Shown here: positions 12,958 to 45,699 of the stretch, piece by piece | Layout of the letters: each line of letters starts with the position of its first letter | Position numbering within the stretch: the stretch's first letter is position 1 | Source of the DNA: a phage | DNA: 64,000 bases | Reading direction: 5' to 3' (one strand) | Assembly (NCBI GenBank): GCA_036253495.1 | Contig: GCA_036253495.1_4125.1 | Position numbers and translations under genes: made by a program | The notes under the pieces: model-generated | Told to the model about the DNA's origin: nothing | The model's input: the letters and a program-made list of their open reading frames with translations, nothing else | Databases searched by the model: none

Positions 12958-13299
12958 ATGAAAACTAATATTCAACTTAAGGTTTATAAATCATTTGCAA
13001 GTACATATATCAAATGCAGTCTATGTAAAGATGTAATGGACTACAAAGGTAAGCCATTCACGATTACTTACGATTCTACAAGAGGTTTTTATATATCTTT
13101 TGCTGATTACAAATATAACATGTACGAACACATTGACATTGAAGATTTAAGTACTTTATCTGAAGAAGAATACTTTCAAGAATCATTAGTATGGGATTTA
13201 GAGTTTCCTATGCCATTGGTACATAAGATGATAGTACTAATAAAAGAAACTAAACAGGAGCCTAATAGTGCTTATGAAGAACACATTATTGAGTACTGA
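12958..13299 (+). CDS. family B (FQ-motif) paralog B1, short form, 113 aa
   Basis: motif EEEYFQESLVWD. Confidence 0.75.
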   Translation: MKTNIQLKVYKSFASTYIKCSLCKDVMDYKGKPFTITYDSTRGFYISFADYKYNMYEHIDIEDLSTLSEEEYFQESLVWDLEFPMPLVHKMIVLIKETKQEPNSAYEEHIIEY

Positions 13300-13302
13300 A
13301 CC

Positions 13303-13533
13303 ATGAAAAGATTATCATTCGAAGAGTACTGCAAGCTTATTAATACTTTACAACCACAAATAAAACAAATAAATTCTCTTCCTATATCCCAAGAAGAACG
13401 TGCAGTACTGAAAGATGAGTTAATTTTAAAATGCACAGTAGGTACTAACTATCAAGCTGATAGTGTTCGTTATCTAATTTGGGGTTTAATGTGCATAATA
13501 GAGAACAAAGCAGTTGACAGTACTCTAATGTAG
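13303..13533 (+). CDS. family A paralog A22, 76 aa
   Basis: motif TVGTNYQADS. Confidence 0.7.
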   Translation: MKRLSFEEYCKLINTLQPQIKQINSLPISQEERAVLKDELILKCTVGTNYQADSVRYLIWGLMCIIENKAVDSTLM

Positions 13534-13542
13534 TGCTATAGT
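13514..13542 (+). promoter_or_regulatory. sigma70-like promoter
   Basis: TTGACA 13514-13519, N17, TATAGT 13537-13542. Confidence 0.6.
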
Positions 13543-13582
13543 GTCAGTACTTTTTCGAGCGTTAAAATATAGGGTACAGATT

Positions 13583-13828
13583 ATGTTAAAATTTTTAAAT
13601 TTCCTTATCGTCTTGTGTATTGTTCTTGGGATTGCACCGTTTGTATTAGCGTATCTGGATTCAGATGAAATGCACAAGATGAATTGCACAAAGACAGGAC
13701 AGAGTAGAAAAGAGACGGTTATGATGCCCGTAACGGTTATTGTGAATAACATGCCGATTACAAACATGGTCCCTACCCTAACGACAACGTACCAGTACTC
13801 TTGTGATGACGGAGAGAGGTGGAGATAA
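13583..13828 (+). CDS. small membrane-anchored protein, 81 aa
   Basis: start re-set from 13541; N-terminal MLKFLNFLIVLCIVLGIAPFVLAYL hydrophobic helix. Confidence 0.55.
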   Translation: MLKFLNFLIVLCIVLGIAPFVLAYLDSDEMHKMNCTKTGQSRKETVMMPVTVIVNNMPITNMVPTLTTTYQYSCDDGERWR

Positions 13829-13835
13829 TGCGATA

Positions 13836-14162
13836 ATGCGTAAGATCAATTGTATAAAAAGAGCGAATACATGTTTCATTGCGTTGACCAATGTACCGGG
13901 TGGGTCTGGTGTTAAGATATTTGAGTACAATAAAGTTGATAATTGTTTCTATTGGGTAGAAGGTATCAAATCATATGAAAATACGATAGCAGTACCGAAT
14001 CTAGTTGATATCTCTGAAGAAGAAGAGTTTCAGTACATGTTAGTACACGATGATTCTTTTGGGTTGACATACAAAGAGATGAAGGAAGTACAAAGGCAGA
14101 TGATATCATGTATGAATATTTCTAAGCATTTCCTTCAAAATATTCATCCAATTTACGTATAA
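13836..14162 (+). CDS. family B paralog B2, short form, 108 aa
   Basis: motif EEEEFQYMLVHD; ATG 13836 chosen by alignment with B1/B3 N-termini (track GTG 13803). Confidence 0.65.
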   Translation: MRKINCIKRANTCFIALTNVPGGSGVKIFEYNKVDNCFYWVEGIKSYENTIAVPNLVDISEEEEFQYMLVHDDSFGLTYKEMKEVQRQMISCMNISKHFLQNIHPIYV

Positions 14163-14171
14163 GAGATTAAT

Positions 14172-14507
14172 ATGAAATTCAACATTCATAGAATTAATTC
14201 CGGTTGTATATTTGCTTATACGCATGAGAATTACAAGAAGTACATGAATCATGAAGTACATTATGTTTTTGAGGACGGTAAAGAATATTTTGCTTATTTG
14301 AGTCCCAGGAGTTTAGGTAAGTACGAGTTGCTTCAGGATCTTTCTCTTATGCAGGAAGATGAATTATTTCAGTACAGTCTAATTCATGACCCTTATATGT
14401 TTGATATAGATATTATGTGCAGTTTACAGAAGAGGATGAAAGAAGTTTGGGATTCGATTAAAAGAGGTGATTGTATAGAATATGATAGTATACAAGAAGA
14501 TGCCTAA
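14172..14507 (+). CDS. family B paralog B3, short form, 111 aa
   Basis: motif EDELFQYSLIHD. Confidence 0.75.
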   Translation: MKFNIHRINSGCIFAYTHENYKKYMNHEVHYVFEDGKEYFAYLSPRSLGKYELLQDLSLMQEDELFQYSLIHDPYMFDIDIMCSLQKRMKEVWDSIKRGDCIEYDSIQEDA

Positions 14508-14700
14508 CGGATATGAATTGAAGTACAGACATTTTATTCGAAATGTAGATTCAGATCCTTTTAATGTTAAAATGGCAGAGTTCGATTTATTATTTTATCT
14601 AGGAACGAGAGCACAGCCACAATTCGTTGATGCATACATAAGGGCTTTACGAACAGAGATAGTATGCACACCAAAGGAGTCTAAATGTACAAAAATGTAA
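14500..14700 (+). CDS. family A paralog A23, 66 aa
   Basis: motif YLGTRAQPQF; ATG 14500 fits family length (track 14482). Confidence 0.6.
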   Translation: MPNGYELKYRHFIRNVDSDPFNVKMAEFDLLFYLGTRAQPQFVDAYIRALRTEIVCTPKESKCTKM

Positions 14701-15856: not shown

Positions 15857-16372
15857 ATGAATGAAATTGAATTATTAACGCACAAGATTAGTACAATAAT
15901 GCTTATGCTCAAAAATAATCATCCTATACATAAGTACATTGATATAGATGAATTACGCATAGAAGATAGGCATGGTAAATTATCGTTTATGTTTCACAAT
16001 GCAAATAATGCAGGGAATGTTAACGTTTGTATTGCAGCATTTACCCAAGCCAATCCAGTACAAACATCTCCTGTTGTATACGAAAATAAAGAAGGGTATT
16101 TGTGGGTAAACACAAACGATTATTTCTTTTATGATTTGAAACAAGATGATGAAGTAGAAGAACGAATTGATTTAATTGATATTAGTACAGATTGTAGTGC
16201 TGAATTATTTCAGAAATCGTTATTATATAGTCCTCGTCAAATGCATTATCTAAAGTTATTCAGTTCATTGTACGCGAATCCTTTAATTAAGGGTTTTAAA
16301 TTTTATATAAAAGTTCCTGACATTCAAGCAGTTTATGATATTTTGATGCAAGGATATAGTTATGAAGTATAG
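15857..16372 (+). CDS. family B paralog B4, 171 aa
   Basis: motif SAELFQKSLLYS. Confidence 0.7.
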   Translation: MNEIELLTHKISTIMLMLKNNHPIHKYIDIDELRIEDRHGKLSFMFHNANNAGNVNVCIAAFTQANPVQTSPVVYENKEGYLWVNTNDYFFYDLKQDDEVEERIDLIDISTDCSAELFQKSLLYSPRQMHYLKLFSSLYANPLIKGFKFYIKVPDIQAVYDILMQGYSYEV

Positions 16373-16670
16373 AATGCTCTATACAAAAGATATGATTTAT
16401 GTTGAATTAGAAGGCGATGAAGACGGTTGGAATTTGATTTATTCATGTAGTTCAGGTTGGTACATGGCACATTTAAATGATAACGAAGTCACAGATTATT
16501 TTGTAGATTTCAATACATTATCCGACGAAGAATTGTTTCAACAGCAATTAGTGATTGACACAGGTGGATATGATGTGTTATTATTAAAAAAGATACAGAA
16601 AGCTGTTATGAATTTTAATGCCCAGGTATCCGAATGGGAAAGGAAATATTATGACCTCGAAGTACAATAA
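16362..16670 (+). CDS. family B paralog B5, short form, 102 aa
   Basis: motif DEELFQQQLVID. Confidence 0.7.
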   Translation: MKYRMLYTKDMIYVELEGDEDGWNLIYSCSSGWYMAHLNDNEVTDYFVDFNTLSDEELFQQQLVIDTGGYDVLLLKKIQKAVMNFNAQVSEWERKYYDLEVQ

Positions 16671-17019
16671 TACATTTGATATCAATAAGTTAACAGAATG
16701 GTTTTATAATATTGAAATTGAAGCTATTCCGTATCATAAGTACGAACAAAGTGATTTGCGTAGTATAGATATTCGTGAGTTGTATGCATATTATCAGAGT
16801 GCATTAGAGATGCATAAGATATTTTTGAGTACAGAATACATGACACGTTGTAAGGATGCGTTTGATGAATTCAAGAAGAATGATAATTTAGTACAGAAAT
16901 ATGTAATAGCAAAGTACATGTACCTTCAGGGAATTACAAGTACAGTGGAATTCAATACAGTTCTTGCTTTAGTTGAGATTATTTTATTATGCAAAAATGT
17001 AAAGTGGAATTTAGTTTAG
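16651..17019 (+). CDS. hypothetical protein, 122 aa
   Basis: start re-set from 16618; SD GGGAAAGGAAA; no FQ motif. Confidence 0.55.
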   Translation: MTSKYNNTFDINKLTEWFYNIEIEAIPYHKYEQSDLRSIDIRELYAYYQSALEMHKIFLSTEYMTRCKDAFDEFKKNDNLVQKYVIAKYMYLQGITSTVEFNTVLALVEIILLCKNVKWNLV

Positions 17020-17486
17020 AGAGTGCTGTACAGTACGTTAAGTACATTGAAGGTGTATACAATATAATGAAAGCATATGAAGGAAAAGGATATGCTTCAA
17101 TAAATCACAAATATGATTATATTAACAATCAGTTAGAAGAATCAAATTCAGGTAAAGTGCTTTTTAGTTTTTTATATTTTGCTCCTGACAATGTATATCC
17201 TGATGAAAATGATCTTCGTCTGGAAAGAGATGACCTTTGGTATATGTATCCAGGACGTGATAAGCCAATGGATGATGCTTTGTTGGAAATCAAATACAGT
17301 ACAGAACCTTTGACACCGGAGTTGTGGTTCCAGTACAGTACAATACATGAAGAAATTGATATCTTTTTCTACGCAATATATAAGATGCTTTATGAGAATG
17401 GTGTGCTTAAGAATCATGTATATTTTTATTTCCAGCAAATGAAAAATGTATATGAGTCCTTTTACCCAACCGAGCCTGTATCGTAA
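16989..17486 (+). CDS. family B paralog B6, long form, 165 aa
   Basis: motif PELWFQYSTIHE; N-terminal SLESAVQYVKYIEGVY helix. Confidence 0.7.
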   Translation: MQKCKVEFSLESAVQYVKYIEGVYNIMKAYEGKGYASINHKYDYINNQLEESNSGKVLFSFLYFAPDNVYPDENDLRLERDDLWYMYPGRDKPMDDALLEIKYSTEPLTPELWFQYSTIHEEIDIFFYAIYKMLYENGVLKNHVYFYFQQMKNVYESFYPTEPVS

Positions 17487-17512
17487 GATATGGGCTTTTT
17501 TACGTTTTGGTA

Positions 17513-17541
17513 TTGACACAGTACAGAATCGGTGCTAACAT
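17513..17541 (+). promoter_or_regulatory. sigma70-like promoter
   Basis: TTGACA 17513-17518, N17, TAACAT 17536-17541. Confidence 0.55.
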
Positions 17542-17568: not shown

Positions 17569-18111
17569 ATGCAAACATCGCAAAAATCGCAAAAATCGCA
17601 AGTACAGAAAGCAATGACATTCAATGAAATTGGTGCATTTAAAGATAAGATTATTGATTGTATTGAATACGCGATTTGTAGTAATATCAAAAGTATAGAG
17701 GTATTTAACAAGTCAAATCGCTCTTACCATATGATGTACATTGCAAACAATAATGGTATCATTCCATTTGTTTCGGATAGTACAATATGGTTCGCTTGCG
17801 ATGTGAAAAAATACACAATAGGTTCATATGTCTTCGGTAAACATGGTGATCTAATTATTCCTGAGCATTGTATGCAAGAAGAAGAATATTTTCAAAAGCA
17901 ATGTGTACATGAACCATTAGAGATGGTTGCTTTATATATGATACCTTATATCTCTAAATGTGTTCATGAGAATAAAGCTCCGTGGAATCATGAATTTGTA
18001 TCGTTGAAGTTATTGTATAATGTTTTAGTACAATATTATGATTACAGACACGAGGGTACAATCAGCGATGTATGGGATTTCGAAAATTTAAGGGTAAAAA
18101 CATATGAATAA
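17569..18111 (+). CDS. family B paralog B7, long form, 180 aa
   Basis: motif EEEYFQKQCVHE; SD AAGGAGA. Confidence 0.75.
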   Translation: MQTSQKSQKSQVQKAMTFNEIGAFKDKIIDCIEYAICSNIKSIEVFNKSNRSYHMMYIANNNGIIPFVSDSTIWFACDVKKYTIGSYVFGKHGDLIIPEHCMQEEEYFQKQCVHEPLEMVALYMIPYISKCVHENKAPWNHEFVSLKLLYNVLVQYYDYRHEGTISDVWDFENLRVKTYE

Positions 18112-18742
18112 TTTTCCAAGAAATGCTTCACCGTATGAGGTGATGAAGTTCATGGAGCCTCATGTTCCTTATATGTTTGAAATGCTAAAGAAGTTCAATG
18201 CTATTTTCCCTGAGAATTCAAAATTGGAGATTCCATTTGATTCCGCATCCAGATACAGTGCATCCTGTGGTAAATTAGTTTTAGTTATCGGTAGTGACAG
18301 AATTGGTTTCAGGGAAGTATTTGACACGTCATTAGCATTTGGTATATTCGATAACAACAATAACATCACATACATTGACAAGTACATTTGCGACATAGCA
18401 GGTTCATCTAAGCCGGATTCCTTTGTGGATTCAGTTGCAGATTATGGTGTTTCAAAAGATGGTAATGTAATAAGTACAAAGACGTTCATATCATTATCGT
18501 TAGACGATGACATATGTTACATTGCAGGTCAAGAGTACGAGGGTGTAGAGGAAGTGCTTTTTCAAATGTCCTTAGTACAGAAGGATATGGTGGACCCTAC
18601 CGAAATCCTGAAGTTGTGCAAATATGCAAATGAGTACAAGAAATTGATTGAACCTGGGTTTAGTTTCAGTGCACAGAGTCCGCATTTTCAGATAAAAGTA
18701 TATGAAGATTTCATTTTGAAGTTAAAAGAGATTGTGTTATAA
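18104..18742 (+). CDS. family B paralog B8, long form, 212 aa
   Basis: motif EEVLFQMSLVQK. Confidence 0.75.
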   Translation: MNNFPRNASPYEVMKFMEPHVPYMFEMLKKFNAIFPENSKLEIPFDSASRYSASCGKLVLVIGSDRIGFREVFDTSLAFGIFDNNNNITYIDKYICDIAGSSKPDSFVDSVADYGVSKDGNVISTKTFISLSLDDDICYIAGQEYEGVEEVLFQMSLVQKDMVDPTEILKLCKYANEYKKLIEPGFSFSAQSPHFQIKVYEDFILKLKEIVL

Positions 18743-18794
18743 TACGCAATAACATGCAATAACACACAATACAACAAAGACGGGAGTGATTTAG

Positions 18795-19331
18795 ATGATC
18801 CAGCACAAACATTTTGAGTACGAGTTCGCTGACAATTTAGTAAAAATCGTACAGGCGTTTGAGGCTGGGGATTTTGACCACATCTATCCTAAGCACAAGG
18901 AAGGATGGCTTGAGCCTAAGAGCGATATTGAAAAGTATCCATCTATTGTGTATTACAGGAGAGATACGGTAATGCACGCTGTAGGTGAGAAGATGCAGTT
19001 AGAGTATTGTCTTTTGTTCAATGCTATTACATCGGCTACATCAGCATCTGAAGAGTTCGCTCCAGTGAATTGGATTCGTTATTTGGATATGAGCAAGAGA
19101 GAGGAAGAAACCTTTTTTGCTTTAACAAAGCACGTTGATATTGCAACCTTGAATCCTAACATCCTGAGTCCTGAAGAATATTTTCAGGAGTCCTTAGTAC
19201 AAGATCCTTATGTTTTACAGGTGCAGCAAGTATATAATGTATTACGTGCTAATGTGAAAACGAATTTCTTTTTAGCTTTAACGTGGTACGATAGGTTAGT
19301 AAAAGATCTCAAAGAGATTAAGGGGGAGTAA
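18795..19331 (+). CDS. family B paralog B9, long form, 178 aa
   Basis: motif PEEYFQESLVQD; SD GGGAG. Confidence 0.75.
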   Translation: MIQHKHFEYEFADNLVKIVQAFEAGDFDHIYPKHKEGWLEPKSDIEKYPSIVYYRRDTVMHAVGEKMQLEYCLLFNAITSATSASEEFAPVNWIRYLDMSKREEETFFALTKHVDIATLNPNILSPEEYFQESLVQDPYVLQVQQVYNVLRANVKTNFFLALTWYDRLVKDLKEIKGE

Positions 19332-19897
19332 TGCTGGACCTTCAGGACATAGAAAGTACATGCAAAGCGATAGAAGATGATTTAGAATACATCAAGGGGT
19401 TGTATTTAATTGTAGATAGGATTTACAAAAATCCGAATGCGTTTCAGGAAACGTACCAGCATGATAAATTTCGTCACGAACCAATCATTACGCTTATGTC
19501 GGATTTATCGATTTACGAAAGAAAATCCAACAAATCACATAGTGTATTATTTGTGAGTACAGATAGATTTTACAGTACAACATCAATTTGTTCAGATGTA
19601 TCATGTGCATGGTTCAGTTCAAATGAATATATAACAGTTAAAAATAATGGCGAAAATGAGAAATTAAAAGTAAGTGAGCTTATTGATTTGATGCCATATA
19701 GTCCTGATGTTGTGTTTCAGTACAGTACATTGCACGATTATAATTCAATACGATATCGTTATTTTGTTAAGCATTATTATGATACCTTCGGGGAGTTGAC
19801 GGAGAAGTTAACGTTGAGATTTGACCGTGATATCGATCTCGTTGCAATGCTTCAGTACATACAGTACGTGTTTGATAAGGACGCGGAAAAGGGGTAA
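19331..19897 (+). CDS. family B paralog B10, long form, 188 aa
   Basis: motif PDVVFQYSTLHD; TAATG overlap. Confidence 0.75.
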   Translation: MLDLQDIESTCKAIEDDLEYIKGLYLIVDRIYKNPNAFQETYQHDKFRHEPIITLMSDLSIYERKSNKSHSVLFVSTDRFYSTTSICSDVSCAWFSSNEYITVKNNGENEKLKVSELIDLMPYSPDVVFQYSTLHDYNSIRYRYFVKHYYDTFGELTEKLTLRFDRDIDLVAMLQYIQYVFDKDAEKG

Positions 19898-20097: not shown

Positions 20098-20454
20098 ATG
20101 AGCAATGATTTTGCTATTCACAGTTTTTTCTACAAAAAGGTTGAGTTCTATTGTAATCTCGTTAAGGGTGATACCAATCATTCGTTGGACCAATATATTA
20201 AGTACACCTCAAATGGATTTTCTTTTATTGATTACGGTCGAGTGGGTGGTGGTGTTAATGAACCTCTACTGGACTATACAGAAATGGATGAGGCTACACT
20301 ATTTCAGGAATCATTAGTGTTCGATAAGAAATATATTTGTACACTAGATGAAGTTATTGGTATTCAGAATATCATGAAAGAACACTCTGCGAAGTGCATG
20401 ATAGAATTAACTCAAGATAAGCACAAGACTGTTCAGTACCATTTCAATCTTTAG
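20098..20454 (+). CDS. family B paralog B11, short form, 118 aa
   Basis: motif EATLFQESLVFD. Confidence 0.75.
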   Translation: MSNDFAIHSFFYKKVEFYCNLVKGDTNHSLDQYIKYTSNGFSFIDYGRVGGGVNEPLLDYTEMDEATLFQESLVFDKKYICTLDEVIGIQNIMKEHSAKCMIELTQDKHKTVQYHFNL

Positions 20455-20465: not shown

Positions 20466-20810
20466 ATGACATACAATGAATACCGTGAAATAGATCTTCT
20501 CCAGAATACATTATATGAAATTGAAGATTTAATGCACGGATGGACAAGTCTTTCTTTCTTTAATGAAATGTTCGAAGAAATAAAAGTAGTACTACAGAAA
20601 AAACATAATGGTACTAAAATTAAAATAAAGACTTTCACTGGAGAAGTCTGGTGCGGAGAAATTGTGAAATACATTATAACTCGCAATAACGCATCATTCT
20701 GTTTGAATACTGGTCATTACAGAAATCATTTCAACAATAGCAGTACTCAAATTATTTCCGAGGAAGAATACAATGAGCACTGTAATAAACTTCTTAAGAG
20801 TAGATTCTAA
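20466..20810 (+). CDS. hypothetical protein, 114 aa (family C-like)
   Basis: helical N-terminus then NGTKIKIKTFTGEVWCGEIVKYI, resembling family C; no FQ motif. Confidence 0.6.
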   Translation: MTYNEYREIDLLQNTLYEIEDLMHGWTSLSFFNEMFEEIKVVLQKKHNGTKIKIKTFTGEVWCGEIVKYIITRNNASFCLNTGHYRNHFNNSSTQIISEEEYNEHCNKLLKSRF

Positions 20811-33844: not shown

Positions 33845-33872
33845 TTTAATATTATTTAACCGAGGATATCAT

Positions 33873-37505: not shown

Positions 37506-38108
37506 ATGATCATTGACATGCCTATTCTTAATAAAATGCTTAACCCTGTCATTACGTTAGCTAAAAGTATTTCTAATAATGAAAAGTTGCATCTCCCATA
37601 CTCTATGTTAACGTATGCAACTGATTTTTACAGGATTGAAATCTCGGCATGTGAACAACGAATTACACTAGCATTCAAACGCCTTGGTGCTGGACTTGCA
37701 AATGATTTTGATATTTCACTGATACTTCATGGTGAATTAGAAGATAGTAAAATTCTGTCCTATGAAAGAATTCTTCGCAGTACAAATGAAATAAAATTAT
37801 TCAAAACATTTTCACATTATAATGGTTCTGATGTTTCATATTATTTTGATAAGGATTCATTTAAGAATATCAAAAGTGTTGAAGTGAAAGATTTCAGCGA
37901 AGAATGGTATTTTCAAAATACATTAATTCATTCTTTACCTTCATATGAAGAAATGAAGATGAACATTGATCTTTATGAAAAATTAAAATCAGAACTGAAA
38001 TGTAATTTTCTATTATCAATGAACTACAAAAAGATCAGTACTGATGTGGTATTGGAAGATGAACTAATGAAACGAATTTGGTCTGCTATACCAGTTATTA
38101 AGGAATAA
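37506..38108 (+). CDS. family B paralog B41, 200 aa
   Basis: motif EEWYFQNTLIHS. Confidence 0.75.
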   Translation: MIIDMPILNKMLNPVITLAKSISNNEKLHLPYSMLTYATDFYRIEISACEQRITLAFKRLGAGLANDFDISLILHGELEDSKILSYERILRSTNEIKLFKTFSHYNGSDVSYYFDKDSFKNIKSVEVKDFSEEWYFQNTLIHSLPSYEEMKMNIDLYEKLKSELKCNFLLSMNYKKISTDVVLEDELMKRIWSAIPVIKE

Positions 38109-38110: not shown

Positions 38111-38650
38111 ATGCACATTGCAACATTATCAAATACTAAAGAATTTGAGCTATGGCCTGAGAAAGTTAACAGCTTAAGACAGCGTTATGTGAATTTCTGC
38201 CGTGGTATCAGGAAAGCCAGTAGAATGTCACATTCACTAAGCATGTCAATTGATGGTTGTGTTATGAATGCAGATAAGAACCGTTTGTACGTTGAATCAT
38301 ACAGTTCGCAAGCTCTGTACATTATGCTTCATGCTGGTACACAAATCCCACAGAATTCGATTGGTTGTTATTCAATTACATGGTCTGGACGAAAGTCTAC
38401 TAAATTATATCCGTGCAAAAGAAACGACCAATCGTTCAGTGTTGATATTAATTACTGTGAGTACACTGAAGAAGAACACTTTCAGCACAGTACTCTTCAT
38501 GATATCATTGAGTACAATGAATGCATCAATGTACTGGATAAATGTTATGATTTAGAACATAATACTGGTATCGTTGTAGTTAATAATTGCTTTTTTGATA
38601 GTGATGTACTTGATACATTAGATTATTTTTTAGAGGGTTACAATGACTAA
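38111..38650 (+). CDS. family B paralog B42, 179 aa
   Basis: motif EEEHFQHSTLHD. Confidence 0.75.
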   Translation: MHIATLSNTKEFELWPEKVNSLRQRYVNFCRGIRKASRMSHSLSMSIDGCVMNADKNRLYVESYSSQALYIMLHAGTQIPQNSIGCYSITWSGRKSTKLYPCKRNDQSFSVDINYCEYTEEEHFQHSTLHDIIEYNECINVLDKCYDLEHNTGIVVVNNCFFDSDVLDTLDYFLEGYND

Positions 38651-39260
38651 CATTAGAACAGAGTATGTTAAGTACGAGAAAGCACTACGTGATTTACTAA
38701 ACATTGCACCGGATTTAATTAGAGCTAAACAAACACTATTTGACAAGTACGGTCCGAAAAGTGAACTCAAGCTATCAAAAAAGGGAAAACCCACACAATA
38801 TACAACGCTGTATAATAGATATAGCGTTGGGATTTGTAATATCTATACAGATGAATTAGTACTGGAATTAACCCAAGACGATGATGAAGAAGCACATGAT
38901 TTATTTCCTGAATTTGAAGAGTGCATGTTTAGTCCAGGTAATCCAGTGTTTTTAACCTTAAATGATGGAAGAAAAACGCTAAAAGAATCGTTCATCACAT
39001 ATGATGCCAAAACTAAAACACTAATGGATATTGAATCTGGGTATAAGACTGATCTGAAATCACTTGAAGATTGTAAGGGTGCATTGTTTCAGATGGGTGT
39101 AATCACAGAGGTTACCACTACACCAGAAGAATTATGGCTTATGGTTTCAGTACTGAATGATTGGTACAAAGTGAAGAGTCTACGAAATATGTTCATTTAT
39201 ATCAAGCCTGATTGCATCAAGAAAGAAACACTAATTAACAATATGGTAATACCTGAATGA
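38643..39260 (+). CDS. family B paralog B43, 205 aa
   Basis: motif KGALFQMGVITE. Confidence 0.65.
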   Translation: MTNIRTEYVKYEKALRDLLNIAPDLIRAKQTLFDKYGPKSELKLSKKGKPTQYTTLYNRYSVGICNIYTDELVLELTQDDDEEAHDLFPEFEECMFSPGNPVFLTLNDGRKTLKESFITYDAKTKTLMDIESGYKTDLKSLEDCKGALFQMGVITEVTTTPEELWLMVSVLNDWYKVKSLRNMFIYIKPDCIKKETLINNMVIPE

Positions 39261-39856
39261 AAAAAGATCCAAATGAAGACTTAATCAATTCTTTAAGTAC
39301 TATCAAAGATTTGTGGTTACGATATCGTGGATTGTATAGTGTTAAAGATACAGAAAATAACATACTCCAAAGTCTTAAAATCACGATTCGAATGCAATTC
39401 AAAAATGGAATGGCAGTTGATGTTGAGATGAACAAAACTGGAGTTTATGTATATGATGGTTCTCGAACTGCAATCTTTATGGCAGAATTCATAGATGAAG
39501 ACTGTAATCTATATTGTTCATACGACATTGAAAGTGGTGATATCGAAATGTTCGCTAATGAACCTATCCTGCTCCGTTTCACTAAATCATGGAATGAAGA
39601 TTACATTATATATCAAAATGGAGGCTTCTTAAATTCCGATGAGGAACCCATCGATAACATAGAAGAAATGGCATTCCAGAGTAGTACTGTTAATGATGAT
39701 GCATTATCTTATCAAGAAATCCTTGACACAGTGAATGGTTATGATAAGATACAGGCTGCAATGAAAGAGAACGGTATCTGTTACCTTACAGTACTGGACA
39801 AACTCTTCTACGATGAACTGTGTTCGTACCTGAACTGTATTCTCACTGAGGATTGA
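39257..39856 (+). CDS. family B paralog B44, 199 aa
   Basis: motif EEMAFQSSTVND; ATGA overlap. Confidence 0.7.
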   Translation: MKKDPNEDLINSLSTIKDLWLRYRGLYSVKDTENNILQSLKITIRMQFKNGMAVDVEMNKTGVYVYDGSRTAIFMAEFIDEDCNLYCSYDIESGDIEMFANEPILLRFTKSWNEDYIIYQNGGFLNSDEEPIDNIEEMAFQSSTVNDDALSYQEILDTVNGYDKIQAAMKENGICYLTVLDKLFYDELCSYLNCILTED

Positions 39857-40272
39857 TGATGATTCTATACCATGCAAGTACTGTTAAAATTGACAACTTC
39901 TACATTCCTTATGGTGGTTTACATATGGGAGGGAAGCATAGTGCTCTTGAGGCTGCGTTACGCAAGCTGAGAAGCCCACTGAACGTTGTTGATGCTGACA
40001 CGGTGTACTTGCATACCTTAGAAGTTGACGTTGATAACGTGCTTCTGTGTGAGGATATGGGTAGTGATGACGAATGGCGATCACTTATTGAGTATTGTGA
40101 TACTGAAGGTTACGATGCAGTTCAGTACAAGAATGAATACGAGCCGGACAATGTTCCTAGTTATATGATTTGGGATACATCTAAAGTTCGTATTGTTGAA
40201 GTTGATGCTATGCATATGGATGAAGCTGAAATGATTATCGAAGATTTTCTTGATGAATATGAAGGTGTATAA
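39853..40272 (+). CDS. non-family insert, 139 aa; possible minimal H-Y-E ADP-ribosyltransferase-like protein (speculative)
   Basis: N-terminal LYHAST (cf. HG[ST] of Tpt1/PARP-type ARTs), GGLHMGG, and YKNEYE resembling the PARP catalytic-Glu segment YNEYIVY; by-eye motif match only. Confidence 0.3.
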   Translation: MMMILYHASTVKIDNFYIPYGGLHMGGKHSALEAALRKLRSPLNVVDADTVYLHTLEVDVDNVLLCEDMGSDDEWRSLIEYCDTEGYDAVQYKNEYEPDNVPSYMIWDTSKVRIVEVDAMHMDEAEMIIEDFLDEYEGV

Positions 40273-40796
40273 TGACTGATTCAATGACAGTACTGGTACG
40301 TACTAAGTTACTATTGAAGATTGGTGAGATTTTCACAGATCTTATGCACAATCAAATTGATATTACAGAACTAGATATTAAGCAACCGTGGGAAATTACA
40401 AGGTTCTCGGCGTTCCACCGATTGTCATATAAAGGTGAAACTGTTCTTGATTTTAATCACAAAGCAAAATTCATGGATTATGCCGCGTTGTACCGAAATA
40501 ATTATTCAGGTTGTATAACCAATAACTTCAAAGGAATAAAAGTACAGATTGAATCAATTGAATTTAACGAATTACTATATCCAGAATTTAAGTTAACTGA
40601 AGAATCTATGTTTCAGTACTCACTAATTCTAAAAGATCTAGAAACTCTAGAGTACTACAGAGAGTTAGTAGATATTTTTATGAATGTTCGTCTTTCAAAA
40701 GATATTGTGATATTCTGGTATACAGAGCGTATTACAGAGGAAGTACTTGAAGAATTTCTCGTAAATATGACAGCTATTAAGGAGAATTTATGTTAG
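40272..40796 (+). CDS. family B paralog B45, 174 aa
   Basis: motif EESMFQYSLILK. Confidence 0.75.
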   Translation: MTDSMTVLVRTKLLLKIGEIFTDLMHNQIDITELDIKQPWEITRFSAFHRLSYKGETVLDFNHKAKFMDYAALYRNNYSGCITNNFKGIKVQIESIEFNELLYPEFKLTEESMFQYSLILKDLETLEYYRELVDIFMNVRLSKDIVIFWYTERITEEVLEEFLVNMTAIKENLC

Positions 40797-41254: not shown

Positions 41255-41669
41255 TATAAATGAATTAGTTAATGCTATCTTATCATGCAAATTAAAAATT
41301 GATACCAAATGTAAGTACAATGGTATTAATTTATACAAATTAAAATATTCACGAATACATAATTCAGTAAAATACATTTACGGTACTAGTCAAATCATCT
41401 TTGAAACGGTTACAGTGAACAGTAAATTACTTATTGATGTTTATATCAGTAATAAGATTAAAAATTCACAAAAAGTGTTGACAGTTTCTTCTGATAATGT
41501 TACTATGTTTGATACCAACAATAAGAAGTTAGATATTGATTTAGATGTTATTCTTGATGGTGACTTATTCCAGTACGAGTGTATTGGTCTAAATAATCCA
41601 TTTGATAAATCAGTACTAGTCAATTTAATCAAACATATTAAGGGTATTTTAGATGAAACTAACAACTGA
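41211..41669 (+). CDS. family B paralog B47, 152 aa
   Basis: motif DGDLFQYECIGL. Confidence 0.65.
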   Translation: MNLPTLSIAETRLTNINELVNAILSCKLKIDTKCKYNGINLYKLKYSRIHNSVKYIYGTSQIIFETVTVNSKLLIDVYISNKIKNSQKVLTVSSDNVTMFDTNNKKLDIDLDVILDGDLFQYECIGLNNPFDKSVLVNLIKHIKGILDETNN

Positions 41670-42153
41670 TATGAAACTTTGCATTTCTTTGATTATGCGT
41701 TCATTCGATGACAAAAGGACAAGTAAAGTTACTATCACCAATGACCATTTACAATGCAGTACACTCAATAGTACTGTAGTTTTCGGATTACATAGCCTCC
41801 GTTTGACGATAGTAAATAATATTGACAATACGGCGATGTGTATTACCCCCTGCCACGTTCAGGATGAACATGGTGTTTATCTTCACCACATGGGGACTTC
41901 GTATTTCATTTTCAATGAAGAAAAGGGAGTACAAAAAGACTTTAACACGTTGTGCGTAGACGGCGGTGAATTGTTCCAGATGGGAACTTTATATCAGTGT
42001 GATTTTACTGATACATCTGAAGTACTTCCATTATTTCTTGATCTCATTAAGAATTTAGGTTCATTTACTGGTCGCTATAACAAATCATTAAAGGCACAGG
42101 CAATTCAAAATATCTCGGAAGCAATAGAATATTACGAAAACGCTGTGTCGTAA
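41653..42153 (+). CDS. family B paralog B48, 166 aa
   Basis: motif GGELFQMGTLYQ. Confidence 0.65.
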   Translation: MKLTTDMKLCISLIMRSFDDKRTSKVTITNDHLQCSTLNSTVVFGLHSLRLTIVNNIDNTAMCITPCHVQDEHGVYLHHMGTSYFIFNEEKGVQKDFNTLCVDGGELFQMGTLYQCDFTDTSEVLPLFLDLIKNLGSFTGRYNKSLKAQAIQNISEAIEYYENAVS

Positions 42154-43686: not shown

Positions 43687-43989
43687 ATGGATACTAAATT
43701 TGAAATTAAATTCTTGACACAACCATATACTCCTAATACTGGGAAACGTTTTATTCCTGAAGGAGCAGTAGAGGTTGTTCACCCTGATGGTACTAAATTG
43801 TATTTGAATCCATGTTCATATGAGCGTGCTGTTGAAATGCTTATCATGAACTGTAAGCACAATACAAAGACAGAGGACAGTAAGTACATCAGTTATCTAT
43901 ATAGCGAGCACATCCTCGACTTCCAAGACGAGAATATGTTCATCCTTGCAATTCAAGACTTTGAAAATTGGATTGAAAATATTGTCTAA
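43687..43989 (+). CDS. hypothetical protein, 100 aa
   Basis: track ORF. Confidence 0.65.
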   Translation: MDTKFEIKFLTQPYTPNTGKRFIPEGAVEVVHPDGTKLYLNPCSYERAVEMLIMNCKHNTKTEDSKYISYLYSEHILDFQDENMFILAIQDFENWIENIV

Positions 43990-43996
43990 AATCATC

Positions 43997-44024
43997 TGGA
44001 CATATGACAATTCAATGATATAAT
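43997..44024 (+). promoter_or_regulatory. promoter with extended -10
   Basis: TGGACA 43997-44002, N16, TGaTATAAT ending 44024. Confidence 0.55.
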
Positions 44025-44055
44025 GTTCGCATCTTTTTGATAAACGGAGATAAAG

Positions 44056-44442
44056 ATGAATACAAGTTCTATTCTAAAAGCAATTGGTGGTGTACTTCTC
44101 ATCGAGGTACAAGGTGAACCAAAACTATGTTGTTTAGAAGATATGAAACAAACTAAATTCTTTGGTACTGGTCAGATTTTCAATGCAATTCGTGTTTTGA
44201 ATGATAAAACAGTAGGTGACTACGGTCGTGCATGGCCTAACTATCGCAATGACGAAGGTGAAATCAGTACTGACTGGAAAACAATTGAAGCTGTTCGTCA
44301 GAATTGTGATTCAGATTGGGATTTCATTGTTGAAGTGTGTAATCAACTTCAAGAAGAAGTACCAGAGATTGTTGAACGTAAAGAAGTACTATCACAGCTA
44401 GAGAAGTTCCGTCACGGAACACTACAATACGAAGTACTGTAA
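44056..44442 (+). CDS. hypothetical protein, 128 aa
   Basis: track ORF; SD CGGAGA. Confidence 0.7.
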   Translation: MNTSSILKAIGGVLLIEVQGEPKLCCLEDMKQTKFFGTGQIFNAIRVLNDKTVGDYGRAWPNYRNDEGEISTDWKTIEAVRQNCDSDWDFIVEVCNQLQEEVPEIVERKEVLSQLEKFRHGTLQYEVL

Positions 44443-44496
44443 TATCTCCGATTATTAAAACAAACTAATTAAACATTATATAAAAAGGAATTTAAA

Positions 44497-44805
44497 ATGG
44501 AAGACAACGGAATGAAATTTGATATGTTTGAAGGTGTACCAGAGTTTGATTTCAACAAGCTTGAAAATGGCGAAGAAGCAGAACTCGTAAGTGTTACCTT
44601 AAAATCGGATACTAAGAAGAAATACTCTTCAGCAGTTCGTGCTCGTTCACAAGAAGAATATGAAACGTTCATTGAAAGTATTCATTATGAAACAATGACT
44701 CGTGCAGATGGAAGTACTTATGAAGTTCGCGTTACAGTACTGAAACCTGAAGTTAATCCTCTTGAGAATTTGAAACCAGTCTACTGCTGGGGAACCTCAA
44801 ACTAA
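44497..44805 (+). CDS. hypothetical protein, 102 aa
   Basis: track ORF; SD AAAGGAA. Confidence 0.7.
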   Translation: MEDNGMKFDMFEGVPEFDFNKLENGEEAELVSVTLKSDTKKKYSSAVRARSQEEYETFIESIHYETMTRADGSTYEVRVTVLKPEVNPLENLKPVYCWGTSN

Positions 44806-44820
44806 TACATAATAAAAAAA

Positions 44821-44845
44821 GGTCGGGAATATTCTCGGCCTTTTT
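44821..44845 (+). terminator. rho-independent terminator
   Basis: GGTCGGGA/TCTCGGCC stem (two G-U pairs), loop ATAT, T5. Confidence 0.7.
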
Positions 44846-44859
44846 GTCTATGAGGCACT

Positions 44860-45699
44860 ATGAAATTAAATTTTATTATCAACTTTAATGTTAAAGAAAC
44901 CGATCATTACGCATCAGAAGATGACCGTGTTGCACCAGCTTCGTCTGAATACATCAGAAATGAAAATGTCCATATGCATGAAAATTATTTCGACTTTGGT
45001 AATTTTATTATCTACCGTGGATTTAAGGATGTTGTATTCCGTTCCAGATATGAAGACTTTGAACATGCACTCATTGATGTACCAGATGAATTAGTATTCC
45101 AGTTCATGTTACTTGGTATTAAAGATTATGACTTTATAGTTTATAACCATTATACTAAGCGTATTATGATTGGTAATGATTCATATGATCTTACTTATTA
45201 TTCCAGTACTGATGAAGATTTAGAAAATATTAAACGCCGTTCTGGTGGTATACGTAATTGTTCATCTTCAAACTCCAGTAGAATGAGTGAAAGGTTTTTT
45301 GATTTCAAAAATAGCAATAATAACGACTGTGAAGACGCGGACAATACTGAACATGTAATGTTTGAAATTGACCACAATAATGGATATAATGACTTCCTTA
45401 ATGTTCTGAAGCCTTATATCAATCATAAATTCATCAAAGATGTAAATCTGGTAGCTCGTGACTTACAGTACAGTGATCGTACTGGTGGTATGCCTGTACC
45501 AATGGATCGTGTATGTACGAACAATACAGTGTTTAATGTACCACGAGAAGATGTTGCATTTGTATTTCTGGCATTTTTGAATTCAGATGCACTATGGGAC
45601 GATAATGAAAGACAATTTAGTTCAAGACATATTGAAATAATTCGTCAAAATACATTACTACTGTGGAAGAAATTTACTGAAAATACCCAGGACAAATAA
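44860..45699 (+). CDS. family B-like protein B50 with long C-terminal extension, 279 aa
   Basis: PDELVFQFMLLG in the N-terminal third; remainder unrelated. Confidence 0.55.
   Translation: MKLNFIINFNVKETDHYASEDDRVAPASSEYIRNENVHMHENYFDFGNFIIYRGFKDVVFRSRYEDFEHALIDVPDELVFQFMLLGIKDYDFIVYNHYTKRIMIGNDSYDLTYYSSTDEDLENIKRRSGGIRNCSSSNSSRMSERFFDFKNSNNNDCEDADNTEHVMFEIDHNNGYNDFLNVLKPYINHKFIKDVNLVARDLQYSDRTGGMPVPMDRVCTNNTVFNVPREDVAFVFLAFLNSDALWDDNERQFSSRHIEIIRQNTLLLWKKFTENTQDK

Follow-up and report, generated by a model that had tools for sequence, protein, structure and literature searches.

The variable islands of large vibriophages show an enrichment of defence and anti-defence genes and are swapped as blocks (PMC12028318). 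In jumbo phage PA5oct, genes of the terminal regions with TTGAC/TATAATA promoters were assigned to the early class by RNA-seq (10.1101/679506). Phage fEgEco12 has a 20,993-bp terminal repeat, with genome ends confirmed by restriction digestion (PMC13070987), and 62 proteins have been found by mass spectrometry in virions of phage phAPEC6 (PMC7247149 Table 1). Here we show that a jumbo coliphage of the genus Asteriusvirus, with 98.6% identity to Escherichia phage A4, carries on one strand a tandem array of 44 or more paralogs that belong to one clade-specific protein superfamily. The analysis covered a stretch of 64,000 nucleotides, hereafter the window. Positions 46004-63894 of the window correspond to 60129-76272 of fEgEco12, which, by extrapolation, places the array near the terminus, about 27-56 kb in from the left physical genome end. 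The paralog coding sequence adds up to about 22 kb near one end of a 350 kb E. coli phage genome.

The motif that drew attention to this region in a preliminary description is real: the strict pattern FQ.[STC][LTV][VILTA] was detected in 37 of the 156 plus-strand ORFs, whereas 200 residue shuffles gave an expectation of 0.27 and never more than 2. Profile searches support at least 44 paralogs, 42 between 12958 and 42153 and two outlying ones at 53174 and 53749. All-vs-all phmmer linked 23 ORFs to one another, an iterated HMM built from the window picked up 38 ORFs (0 of 780 shuffled decoys), and a clade-wide HMM brought in two more members, 37001 and 39257. Jackhmmer searches seeded with 34411, 41653, 53174 and 53749 converged on the family, recovering 92-263 known members and 0 decoys. 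The members are listed below, with E-values for the iterated, window-derived profile (window) and the clade-wide profile (clade).

12958..13299, +, short form, 113 aa, motif EEEYFQESLVWD; window E=1.8e-17, clade E=3.7e-09
13803..14162, +, short form, 119 aa by longest ORF, motif EEEEFQYMLVHD; window E=1.7e-13, clade E=5.8e-06
14172..14507, +, short form, 111 aa, motif EDELFQYSLIHD; window E=1.2e-15, clade E=3.7e-08
15857..16372, +, long form, 171 aa, motif SAELFQKSLLYS; window E=2.2e-20, clade E=1.7e-09
16362..16670, +, short form, 102 aa, motif DEELFQQQLVID; window E=1.2e-13, clade E=3e-05
16989..17486, +, long form, 165 aa, motif PELWFQYSTIHE; window E=1.1e-16, clade E=1.1e-14
17569..18111, +, long form, 180 aa, motif EEEYFQKQCVHE; window E=3.8e-23, clade E=7e-15
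18104..18742, +, long form, 212 aa, motif EEVLFQMSLVQK; window E=8.1e-21, clade E=2.3e-07
18795..19331, +, long form, 178 aa, motif PEEYFQESLVQD; window E=1.1e-26, clade E=1.7e-16
19331..19897, +, long form, 188 aa, motif PDVVFQYSTLHD; window E=3.3e-18, clade E=1.9e-08
20098..20454, +, short form, 118 aa, motif EATLFQESLVFD; window E=2.2e-12, clade E=1.7e-07
20810..21136, +, short form, 108 aa, motif ESFIFQESLVWD; window E=8.3e-11, clade E=2.1e-05
21308..21790, +, long form, 160 aa, motif EEYYFQQSTVYN, AlphaFold2-modelled; window E=9e-28, clade E=1.1e-23
21792..22235, +, long form, 147 aa, motif EEYYFQQSLIFN; window E=1e-23, clade E=1.6e-20
22235..22690, +, long form, 151 aa, motif EEYYFQQSTVYT; window E=5.6e-27, clade E=2e-21
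22696..23142, +, long form, 148 aa, motif EEGYFQLSTVLN; window E=4e-21, clade E=5.4e-14
23215..23748, +, long form, 177 aa, motif EEQMFQLSCTDD; window E=7.3e-19, clade E=1.3e-10
24379..24927, +, long form, 182 aa, motif EESVFQLSTVYN; window E=1.4e-20, clade E=6.8e-14
25426..25839, +, member, 137 aa by longest ORF, motif EEEFFQESTVWD; window E=8.2e-17, clade E=2e-07; real start probably ATG at 25471 (122 aa, short form), per the annotation of A4 ortholog A4_365
25839..26177, +, short form, 112 aa, motif EEELFQESLVWE; window E=3.6e-16, clade E=9.1e-07
26180..26716, +, long form, 178 aa, motif EELFFQMSTVDD; window E=9.8e-26, clade E=2.3e-19
26773..27279, +, long form, 168 aa, motif ECEYFQYCTIYS; window E=6.4e-23, clade E=1.9e-19
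27279..27782, +, long form, 167 aa, motif EEDYFQLSTTMN; window E=1.4e-25, clade E=2.2e-20
27766..28104, +, short form, 112 aa, motif EEELFQMSTAFE; window E=3.8e-15, clade E=2.7e-07
28104..28535, +, intermediate form, 143 aa, motif PDELFQYSLVCP; window E=1.5e-12, clade E=0.00012, hhalign probability 91.7%
28523..29005, +, long form, 160 aa, motif EETHFQLSLIYT; window E=2e-28, clade E=2.3e-22
29002..29472, +, long form, 156 aa, motif EEMYFQNSLLYT; window E=7.8e-25, clade E=3.2e-17
29482..29988, +, long form, 168 aa, motif DENYFQNSLIYN, sole basic member, pI 9.3; window E=2.5e-19, clade E=7.9e-17
29963..30574, +, long form, 203 aa, motif DETLFQYSLIHN; window E=2.9e-24, clade E=8.6e-10
30579..31211, +, long form, 210 aa, motif EESFFQNSLIYE; window E=7.3e-20, clade E=2.1e-13
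31208..31759, +, long form, 183 aa, motif DGVLFQYSTLYD; window E=5e-15, clade E=6.1e-09
33816..34427, +, member, 203 aa by longest ORF, motif EEQNFQSSVTHD; window E=4.2e-21, clade E=6.5e-06; real start probably ATG at 33873 (184 aa), per the annotation of A4 ortholog A4_380
34411..34983, +, long form, 190 aa, motif EAYLFQLSLLPG; jackhmmer 92 known members, 0 decoys; window and clade HMMs not significant
34961..35539, +, long form, 192 aa, motif EEELFQLSTMYS; window E=2e-19, clade E=4.4e-10
35536..36096, +, long form, 186 aa, motif DCDCFQKSLIID; window E=2.5e-21, clade E=1.1e-06
36568..37026, +, long form, 152 aa, motif EATIFQLSTLYS; window E=7.5e-21, clade E=2.8e-10
37001..37504, +, long form, 167 aa, motif DEVEFQNSTVNN; window E=0.025, clade E=7.5e-06
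37506..38108, +, long form, 200 aa, motif EEWYFQNTLIHS; window E=2.5e-21, clade E=3.5e-08
38111..38650, +, long form, 179 aa, motif EEEHFQHSTLHD; window E=1.5e-21, clade E=3.4e-09
39257..39856, +, long form, 199 aa, motif EEMAFQSSTVND; window E=0.0037, clade E=1.7e-05
40272..40796, +, long form, 174 aa, motif EESMFQYSLILK; window E=5.2e-16, clade E=2.3e-08
41653..42153, +, long form, 166 aa, degenerate motif GGELFQMGTLYQ, last supported member of the contiguous array; jackhmmer 107 known members, 0 decoys
53174..53752, +, outlying member, 192 aa, motif LPEHFQMSTLFD; phmmer link to 27766-28104; jackhmmer 263 known members, 0 decoys
53749..54438, +, outlying member, 229 aa, motif EEEHFQLMMMRA; clade E=0.0021; jackhmmer 196 known members, 0 decoys

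The ortholog of 41653..42153 in phage 121Q matches the window HMM (E=8.4e-05), and 53749..54438 aligns to the family with an hhalign probability of 71% (E=3.7e-05). Thus, the mutual relatedness of the ORFs proposed in the preliminary description is borne out, as is the inclusion of the two outliers, and its count of at least 50 paralogs is reduced to 44. Seven ORFs (31842, 36090, 38643, 40790, 41211, 42830 and 44860), identified by reconstructing which ORFs had probably been counted, gained no profile support in the HMM, hhalign and jackhmmer tests; this moves the end of the supported array from 45699 to 42153.

The members are 102-229 aa long and share the signature (S/T)EExxFQxS(L/T)(V/I)x(D/N), located 40-97 aa from the C-terminus, in which FQ is invariant (44 of 44 members), S at +3 is found in 37 of 44, and E occupies both -4 and -3 in 31 of 44. 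An HMM built from 31 short forms alone matched 26 of the window's 34 long forms (E-values from 4e-10 to 4e-4), and for many of these the alignment ran from the beta region through the motif into the next helix; hhalign alone aligned just 18 motif columns between the two forms. The presence of one common domain in short and long forms is confirmed. In this core, a variable beta-sheet with antiparallel strands precedes a short capped helix; this helix bears the invariant FQ, and the trailing D/N of the signature starts the next one. Long forms are extended by a helix at the N-terminus and by a FYxD strand and a further helix at the C-terminus. The N-terminal helix and the FYxD element, both noted previously, are seen in alignment A1 as well as in the AlphaFold2 model, with FY[FLIMV]D present in 8 members. 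In the model of 21308-21790 (pLDDT 91.2, pTM 0.85), the motif corresponds to the short helix 107-113, where the block-mean pLDDT is 97-98. The fold of the family had no match to any solved structure.

The depiction of a hypervariable core flanked by conserved anchors applies only loosely, and a sharply delimited core is not supported: the motif block has an entropy of 2.0 bits, and all other segments, helices included, have entropies of 2.6-3.5 bits. The central beta segment (61-107 aa) differs between members mainly by indels. A pure model of a structural hub with a variable surface does not account for the near-invariance of Q and S in sequences that are otherwise randomised; a ligand or partner shared by the paralogs may lie behind it instead.

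Comparison with A4 yielded a pooled dN/dS of 0.225 over 34 family genes (0.173 for non-family genes), which implies purifying selection; the suggested decay of some copies is not borne out. Divergence from 121Q is far deeper: the best matches, largely in the same gene order, have a median amino acid identity of 35% (n=30), whereas neighbouring genes reach 69% (n=75). Between 22670 and 39859 of the window, blastn found almost no similarity to 121Q, just two short pieces, and yet the genes are still collinear and the edges of the dissimilar block are sharp. The short-term dN/dS (0.23) shows no positive selection. Old alleles and the replacement of blocks, instead of an ongoing arms race, could account for the deep divergence.

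The encoded proteins are acidic in 37 of the 38 members analysed (median pI 4.8, median net charge -9), and only one of the 44 contains a membrane-like hydrophobic stretch. None of the products of phAPEC6 gp396c-gp480c, the range within which the array lies, is among the 62 virion proteins of that phage (PMC7247149 Table 1).

The array genes are tightly packed, and the few intergenic gaps contain about seven strong promoter-like sites, in agreement with the dense packing behind few promoters described previously. SD-like sequences precede 30 of the 44 genes, compared to 17% of random positions. The seven TTGACA-like sites have 16-17 nt spacers and a TGn extended -10, and three adjoin terminator-like hairpins; the total number of promoter-like sites is not above that in shuffles (119 vs 115.7).

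13514..13542, +, sigma-70-type promoter-like, TTGACA, 17 nt, TG-n-TATAGT, extended -10; matches 11/12
17513..17541, +, promoter-like, TTGACA, 17 nt, TG-n-TAACAT, extended -10, in the 82-nt gap before 17569; matches 10/12
18716..18743, +, promoter-like, TTGAAG, 16 nt, TG-n-TATAAT, extended -10, before 18795; matches 10/12
23153..23180, +, promoter-like, TTGACA, 16 nt, TG-n-TACAAT, extended -10, in the gap before 23215; matches 11/12
26713..26741, +, perfect-consensus promoter-like, TTGACA, 17 nt, TG-n-TATAAT, extended -10, in the gap before 26773; matches 12/12
31782..31810, +, promoter-like, TTGACA, 17 nt, TG-n-TAGAAT, extended -10, in the gap before 31842; matches 11/12
33816..33844, +, promoter-like, TTGACT, 17 nt, TG-n-TATTAT, extended -10, between the chemoreceptor-like gene and the probable start at 33873; matches 10/12
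17472..17497, +, intrinsic-terminator-like hairpin (11-pair stem), then T run, just 5' of promoter 17513
31748..31769, +, intrinsic-terminator-like hairpin (9-pair stem), then T run, just 5' of promoter 31782
33804..33829, +, intrinsic-terminator-like hairpin (11-pair stem), then T run, 3' of the chemoreceptor-like gene

The early-class terminal genes of PA5oct, a distant relative, also lie behind TTGAC-type promoters (10.1101/679506). From the promoter consensus and this analogy, we infer that the array is expressed early.

As judged from sequence features and analogy, we put at roughly one half the probability that this family is specific to the clade, has expanded by lineage and supplies early cytoplasmic proteins for host interaction or anti-defence; the array most likely represents a library of factors that manipulate the host or counter its defences. 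A diversified arsenal of binders, decoys or immunity-like proteins, as envisaged at the outset, is compatible with the acidity, the absence of orthologs from phAPEC6 virions, the early-type promoters, the extreme divergence and the independent expansion of arrays. Known anti-defence proteins showed neither homology nor fold similarity to the family: the best ArdA Pfam match had E=0.073, for one member only, and there was no match in PADLOC, whose models cover bacterial defence proteins rather than anti-defence ones.

Under the library reading, host RNA polymerase would transcribe the array early from about seven promoters of sigma-70 type with extended -10 elements, and translation of its genes would be coupled where stop and start codons overlap. 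The products would then bind or inhibit host factors in the cytoplasm, most plausibly variable components of anti-phage defence or abortive infection, with the conserved helical hub keeping the fold together and the variable beta-sheet and loops setting the target of each paralog. Diversity would arise by duplication and by recombination that swaps entire blocks of the array among phage lineages, and is proposed to be retained because host targets differ between strains.

The family is not private to this genome but is conserved in 121Q and in distant metagenomic relatives. Searches gave 41 hits each in A4 and 121Q, and three loci from metagenomes had 23, 14 and 23. Weaker matches, at the level of the fold, came from RaK2, GAP32, Serratia phage BF and Yersinia phage fHe-Yen9-03. 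Some arrays of the distant metagenomic relatives appear to have expanded independently: in metagenomic locus L003, 19 of the 23 members have their nearest relative in that locus itself, a pattern indicative of lineage-specific expansion or concerted evolution.

The ORFs carrying the (S/T)EExxFQxS(L/T)(V/I)x(D/N) motif (hereinafter, the FQ family; members are denoted by ORF start) belong to a single family of homologous paralogs, as established by profile searches with decoy controls. The strict pattern FQ.[STC][LTV][VILTA] occurs in 37 of the 156 plus-strand ORFs of the window, against 0.27 expected and a maximum of 2 in 200 shuffles. All-vs-all phmmer comparison within the window joined 23 ORFs in one cluster, and the HMM iterated from this cluster recruited 38 ORFs, with none of the 780 shuffled decoys scoring at all. 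Two more members, 37001 and 39257, were recognised by a clade-wide HMM that also included relatives encoded at other loci, and jackhmmer searches seeded with 34411, 41653, 53174 and 53749 reached the family as well, recovering 92-263 known members and no decoys. Altogether, 44 members are supported, 42 at 12958-42153 and the two outliers 53174 and 53749, with a combined coding sequence of 21.9 kb, that is, about 44 genes and roughly 6% of the genome.

The preliminary description, which proposed comparing all members with one another and building an HMM, had listed at least 50 paralogs at 12958-45699 along with the same two outliers. The members are indeed significantly related, the array is real and both outliers were recovered by jackhmmer, but the count is lower (44), and the supported contiguous part stops at 42153. 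Seven ORFs that were probably included in the earlier count (31842, 36090, 38643, 40790, 41211, 42830 and 44860) recovered only their own orthologs in jackhmmer searches. Five of these contain the FQ dipeptide, the other two only a degenerate trace of the motif, and several are similarly placed; all seven may be very diverged members of the family. For such leftover array ORFs, jackhmmer convergence was used in place of hhalign, which aligned about 15 columns with the large family alignment and did not separate candidates from controls. The ORFs 24824-25474 and 42194-42667 are paralogs of each other outside the FQ family; the sequence AFQQDLIM in the former may have been taken for the FQ motif.

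The FQ dipeptide is present in all 44 members, accompanied by E at positions -4 and -3 in 31, S at +3 in 37, L or T at +4 in 40, and D, N, E, S or T at +7; the distance from the motif to the C-terminus is 40-97 aa. An HMM derived from 31 short forms matched 26 of the 34 long forms of the window (E-values from 4e-10 to 4e-4), and many of these alignments span positions ~10-95 of 110, covering the beta region, the motif and the next helix. When short and long forms were compared using hhalign, the 18 motif columns alone were aligned, with a probability of 94%. Judging by the HMM matches, the short forms (~102-122 aa) represent the core of the long forms (~145-230 aa), and the two groups have a domain in common rather than the motif alone.

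The structure of a long form, the 160-aa product of 21308-21790, was predicted by AlphaFold2 from an alignment of 130 family sequences. The resulting model is confident (pLDDT 91.2, pTM 0.85) and supersedes an earlier run that used only 28 paralogs from the window (pLDDT 71, disordered centre). The predicted elements are as follows.

Predicted structural elements of the 21308-21790 product (AlphaFold2 model)
Residues 3-22: N-terminal helix
Residues 28-95: seven beta-strands
Residues 97-101: short helix
Residues 107-113: motif helix EEYYFQQ, with the tight turn STVYN next
Residues 119-133: helix
Residues 139-142: strand corresponding to the FYxD box
Last element: C-terminal helix

Across the 130 sequences, F of the motif is conserved in 100%, Q in 99%, S in 92% and the two E residues in 85%. 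The column entropy is 2.0 bits in the motif block compared to 2.6-3.5 bits everywhere else, and the central segment varies in length from 61 to 107 residues. The FQ family is one sharply conserved helix-turn hub within an otherwise almost randomised protein. The earlier notion of conserved anchors around a hypervariable core thus holds only loosely: all segments other than the motif are at 2.6-3.5 bits, and a sharply delimited core is not supported. S/T-E-E at the start of a helix and D/N ahead of the next helix are classical capping positions, which favours a structural role for the motif, although capping leaves the near-invariant Q and S unaccounted for.

The same conservation pattern, a single polar/aromatic patch in otherwise near-random sequences that is also the sole block strongly aligned by hhalign between short and long forms, could be read differently: the invariant (S/T)EExxFQxS helix might dock all paralogs on one shared machine, such as a host protease or chaperone, or a phage enzyme, with the variable beta-sheet picking the targets. 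The FQ family would then be a phage counterpart of the F-box, BTB and ankyrin expansions in large eukaryotic viruses. ClpS-like adaptors and several peptidases, thought to be aimed at host proteins, are known in jumbo phages (PMC7824862). However, the model places the motif, with very high confidence, in a capped helix and turn integral to the fold rather than in an exposed peptide, its conservation might be purely structural given the capping positions, and no candidate partner gene co-varies with the array; we consider such a docking function, the main alternative to the repertoire proposed below, unlikely.

The FQ family could not be assigned to any well-characterised family, consistent with the earlier impression from the signature. 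Pfam searches with 28 members and additional sequences yielded nothing above the threshold, and scans of the longest members and relatives revealed neither known domains nor domain fusions. There was no match in NCBIfam for the one member tried and none in PADLOC; comparison of the family profile with all PDB sequences gave a best E-value of 0.033, and no fold match was found in the PDB. A match to the Pfam ArdA family was seen in only 1 of 28 members (E=0.073). These results make it less likely that the FQ family belongs to a known anti-defence family; they do not make anti-defence action itself less likely. Foldseek comparison with BFVD, another analysis suggested at the outset, retrieved only uncharacterised jumbo-phage proteins, from 121Q, RaK2 (six proteins with closely spaced accession numbers), GAP32, Serratia phage BF, SP27, Yersinia phage fHe-Yen9-03 and Erwinia phage pEa_SNUABM_47. 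The matches in RaK2, GAP32 and related phages are at the fold level and weaker than those among the arrays.

In PHROGs, 28 long forms are scattered over 21 families, with further families for the short forms, none of them with an assigned function. These families (phrog_12674, 9317, 34017, 28549, 28680, 34636, 13866, 34600 and others) contain orthologs from related jumbo phages, with matches reaching E=7e-61 to E=2e-103. PHROGs records neither that they form one superfamily nor the motif or the array organisation. When 1.84 billion representative proteins were searched exhaustively with the HMM, only 172 clusters at 50% identity were found. Proteins in the best 150 of the 172 clusters are 55-212 aa long, so no large added domain is present among these. 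The exhaustive search was needed because a word-indexed homolog search with the family profile found only three proteins. The divergence of the FQ family defeats pairwise search: queried with a single member, tblastn detected only phage A4 and one weak match, and queried with the HMM consensus, it detected nothing. Likewise, no alignment block was conserved enough to seed a search for related loci.

The named proteins of the family are "hypothetical proteins" either of A4 or of E. coli assemblies containing 352-359-kb phage contigs. Several, including P0004 and P0151-P0154, are deposited as "Escherichia coli" and are identical or near-identical to the family members. These contigs are whole Asteriusvirus genomes within bacterial genome assemblies. 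Lytic phages in bacterial assemblies have recently been reported, and these deposits are consistent with such reports. In the literature on Asteriusvirus, 121Q, RaK2-like and other jumbo phages, as far as it could be searched, we found no description of the FQ family. About 10% of RaK2 proteins have been noted to be paralogues (PMC3622015), and 22 paralogous ORFs are given for phage CBB (PMC5259590). The family, its motif, its apparently unmatched fold, its size and its arrays in multiple lineages are without description in the sources searched.

The closest relative of the array was found in Escherichia phage A4 (ON286972, 355.5 kb, Asteriusvirus), which matched 20000-40000 in megablast with 98.6% identity over 92% of the query, whereas other Asteriusviruses (121Q, PBECO4, phAPEC6 and others) covered only 6-9%. 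Many Asteriusviruses cover 40-67% of the flanks (1-12900 and 46000-64000), with 84-88% identity. All genes of the region lie on the plus strand, and its G+C content is about 33%. In A4, the array genes are annotated as hypothetical proteins throughout, with one exception: A4_348 (12016-12552 of the A4 stretch L001), the ortholog of 18795-19331 and a member of the FQ family, is labelled "DNA ligase", probably a misannotation that neither Pfam nor PHROGs support. The segment 46004-63894 aligns with 60129-76272 of phage fEgEco12, which has a 20,993-bp direct terminal repeat, with physical ends confirmed by restriction digestion (PMC13070987). Extrapolation, rather than direct alignment, would place the array at ~27-56 kb from the left end, a few kb into the unique sequence and with transcription directed away from that end.

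The family is not confined to the genome of the window. With the window HMM, 41 members each were detected in the A4 stretch and in the syntenic 50 kb of 121Q, and 23, 14 and 23 in three metagenomic loci reached via distant matches; of these loci, L003 shows only a remote relationship to the Salmonella phage Munch group, and L006 to Erwinia phage Hallingskeid. Best matches between the window and 121Q occur in largely the same order, with a median amino acid identity of 35% for the family (n=30) as opposed to 69% for the non-family neighbours (n=75); a few members are 79-90% identical to their 121Q matches. Across 22670-39859, there is almost no blastn similarity to 121Q, apart from a translocated piece (25325-25846) and an 87-nt match (28452-28538), whereas the gene order and sizes are collinear and the flanks are 72-93% identical. 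The edges of this block are sharp and located at gene ends. From this comparison, the 17-kb block looks like a replacement by a deeply diverged, very old homologous allele. Within Asteriusvirus, the nearest relative of 29 of 39 members is the counterpart in the other genome, so these paralogs are older than the split of the Asteriusvirus lineages. In L003, 19 of 23 members are nearest to members of the same locus, a pattern that points to independent expansion or concerted evolution. With tandem paralogs, a single viral clade and amplification within sublineages, the FQ family qualifies, at the level of sequence comparison, as a lineage-specific expansion.

The extreme divergence among the copies, along with the lack of an assigned function so far, would fit debris of repeated tandem duplication, with ORFs kept by chance. 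This explanation is contradicted by the selection and conservation data and appears highly improbable. Pooled dN/dS relative to A4 is 0.225 for 34 family genes; the value is 0.173 for 64 other genes and drops to 0.10 for those beyond 42 kb. The FQ-family genes are thus functional, with constraint only mildly relaxed, and the pooled value gives no sign of positive selection at the A4 distance. Furthermore, the ORFs are intact in the window phage, A4 and 121Q, gene order is conserved genus-wide, the family is retained in distant clades, and SD-like sequences are enriched, being found upstream of 30 of the 44 genes compared to 17% of random positions.

The proteins themselves are strongly acidic: 37 of the 38 members analysed are acidic, with a median pI of 4.8 and net charge of -9 (6.1 and -1 for other ORFs), which makes DNA binding unlikely. 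A membrane-like hydrophobic stretch is present in only 1 of the 44 members. The array contains very few intergenic gaps, and promoter-like sites with a TTGACA-like -35 element, a 16-17-nt spacer and a TGn extended -10 element lie in these gaps; terminator-like hairpins precede three of them.

Promoter-like sites and terminator-like hairpins in the array
13514 (+): promoter-like site
17472 (+): terminator-like hairpin
17513 (+): promoter-like site
18716 (+): promoter-like site
23153 (+): promoter-like site
26713 (+): promoter-like site, the best, with 12/12 matches
31748 (+): terminator-like hairpin
31782 (+): promoter-like site
33804 (+): terminator-like hairpin
33816 (+): promoter-like site

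About 9 of the 28 best plus-strand sites at 12-48 kb fall within the ~4% of the sequence that is non-coding. Because the genome-wide total of promoter-like sites is not above that in shuffles, this evidence is suggestive only. In PA5oct, a distantly related jumbo phage, RNA-seq assigns the terminal-region genes that have TTGAC/TATAATA promoters to the early class (10.1101/679506). By analogy, the array may be transcribed early by the host RNA polymerase.

Paralogous head and inner-body proteins are frequent in giant phages, and the TEV and 3C type proteases cleave sites of the form E-x-x-Y/L-F-Q, with G/S preferred next, which the FQ motif resembles. The FQ proteins could thus be conceived of as virion-internal, ejected or assembly proteins (of the inner body, head or hair-like fibres), with the motif serving as a maturation-protease site or targeting signal; phAPEC6, a 121Q-like phage, possesses an inner body and unusual fibres (PMC7247149). 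However, the array of phAPEC6 lies inside gp396c-gp480c, none of which is among the 62 virion proteins identified by mass spectrometry in this related phage (PMC7247149 Table 1), the predicted promoters are sigma-70 early-like, not late, and the motif is inside a confidently folded helix. The possibility of virion or internal-head proteins is largely refuted by these observations and can be given very little weight. As to the cleavage site, Q is followed by varying, frequently bulky residues (Y 9, L 9, E 6, M 5, N 5) instead of G/S, the segment is confidently predicted to be helical and no such protease was identified in the window, so that a TEV/3C-type substrate site was rejected.

Thus, the FQ family is a clade-specific, massively expanded and selectively maintained set of small acidic proteins encoded in a near-terminal variable region. 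With a probability of about 0.5, we propose that these proteins are expressed early and then form a cytoplasmic repertoire that binds or inhibits host factors varying between strains, the likeliest targets being components of anti-phage defence or abortive infection. Duplication and the exchange of blocks among phage lineages would generate the diversity of this repertoire. A precedent exists in large vibriophages, where variable islands rich in defence and anti-defence genes are swapped as blocks (PMC12028318).

Early-type predicted promoters, non-virion products, rapid diversification and inter-lineage block exchange would also fit with competition among phages, in which the paralogs, instead of countering host defences, would shut out or inhibit phages that superinfect or co-infect, or would neutralise satellite effectors. 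Known superinfection-exclusion proteins are usually membrane-associated, against a membrane-like segment in a single FQ protein, and the family shows no homology to such proteins; we regard this role as quite doubtful. A tentative, and in our estimate improbable, variant of the host-directed repertoire is a modular specificity system with a new fold, in which the EExxFQxS hub engages one common cellular or phage machine or ligand and the hyperdiverse beta-sheets of at least 40 paralogs recognise different host targets. If this were the case, jumbo phages would possess a pre-built adaptor/inhibitor repertoire comparable to the F-box, BTB, ankyrin or MGF expansions of giant eukaryotic viruses. 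It might be the largest counter-defence repertoire that a single family is known to provide in a bacteriophage.

The general kind of arrangement, a lineage-specific multigene family in the terminal variable region of a large virus, is already known. The MGF110/360/505 families of African swine fever virus and the ankyrin, Kelch and other host-range families of poxviruses antagonise host immunity. Like the FQ family, they consist of tens of diverged tandem paralogs near a genome end, encode non-structural products, and vary among strains in copy number and alleles; the hosts are different and the folds unrelated, so that the likeness is one of genome architecture, not homology. In T4, the early genes and plastic regions contain small host-takeover and anti-defence genes behind sigma-70 early promoters (Arn, Dmd, IPI, Alc). 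The resemblance lies in variable, same-strand clusters of small, mostly non-essential genes for non-virion proteins with strong sigma-70-like promoters, which are putative in the FQ array; however, the T4 plastic regions assemble unrelated genes rather than one family amplified more than 40-fold, and no T4 early protein is homologous to the FQ family. Asteriusviruses have been assigned to the T4-related "group 2" jumbo phages, which encode a sigma factor of their own (PMC11895373).

Among jumbo phages, a parallel is offered by Bacillus phage G, in which a zinc ribbon is expanded to ~35 copies, described as "unprecedented" in a 2021 survey by Iyer et al. (PMC7824862). In both cases, one small-protein family has been massively expanded, but that of phage G is a recognisable Zn-ribbon, a proposed DNA binder, found in one phage, whereas the FQ family has no recognisable domain, is acidic, exceeds the phage G copy number with at least 44 copies and is clade-wide. 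Ocr, ArdA and Arn are likewise small, acidic and cytoplasmic, and the SUKH/Imm immunity proteins of polymorphic toxin systems similarly form tandem arrays of very diverged alpha+beta proteins. The FQ array appears to have been independently re-expanded in at least one lineage, and the family is the most diverged part of otherwise similar genomes. In 121Q/RaK2-type jumbo phages, more than 80% of the genes are without known function (PMC7247149); here, one motif and one confidently predicted fold turn dozens of "hypothetical proteins" into a single testable problem. Should the FQ proteins serve in counter-defence or host takeover, the array would offer a wealth of new inhibitors and could determine the host range of phages proposed for therapy. 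If all members share one partner, they would represent a new way for phages to build target-recognition repertoires.

Several other features were observed in the window. A second family of paralogs (8359-14942 and 23745-24169) lies immediately ahead of the main array, its genes interspersed among the first FQ members, and comprises 25 proteins of 66-96 aa with an LGTNYQ(E/D) motif (phrog_4148). It is unrelated to the FQ family (hhalign probability 0.3%), with a pooled dN/dS of 0.36 relative to A4. Within the array, the 124-aa ORF 15476-15850 starts with a signal-peptide-like hydrophobic segment and has neither a 121Q counterpart nor a Pfam match. The 139-aa non-family gene 39853-40272 (phrog_11632), situated in the diverged block, is 92% identical to its 121Q ortholog and has no match in Pfam, NCBIfam or PDB sequences.

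Downstream of the array, ~690 nt at 45700-46391 contain no ORF longer than 52 aa and yet are 85% identical to 121Q, above many neighbouring genes. The predicted RNA fold of this segment has an energy of -162 kcal/mol (z=-4.5 relative to 20 shuffles); it has no Rfam match, and Rfam and tRNA scans of the window found nothing. The segment may represent a structured RNA or a regulatory region.

In the middle of the array, 32387-33799 encodes a 470-aa protein resembling methyl-accepting chemotaxis proteins. Its N-terminal part includes a hydrophobic region, and NCBIfam recognises an MCP signalling domain (E=1e-49); a terminator-like hairpin follows the gene. A4 also carries this gene (A4_379), 121Q lacks a counterpart, and it is unusual cargo for a phage; flagella have been proposed as receptors for Asteriusvirus. 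Finally, a third family of small paralogs, with five phmmer-linked members of 73-128 aa, is located at 49232-51029.
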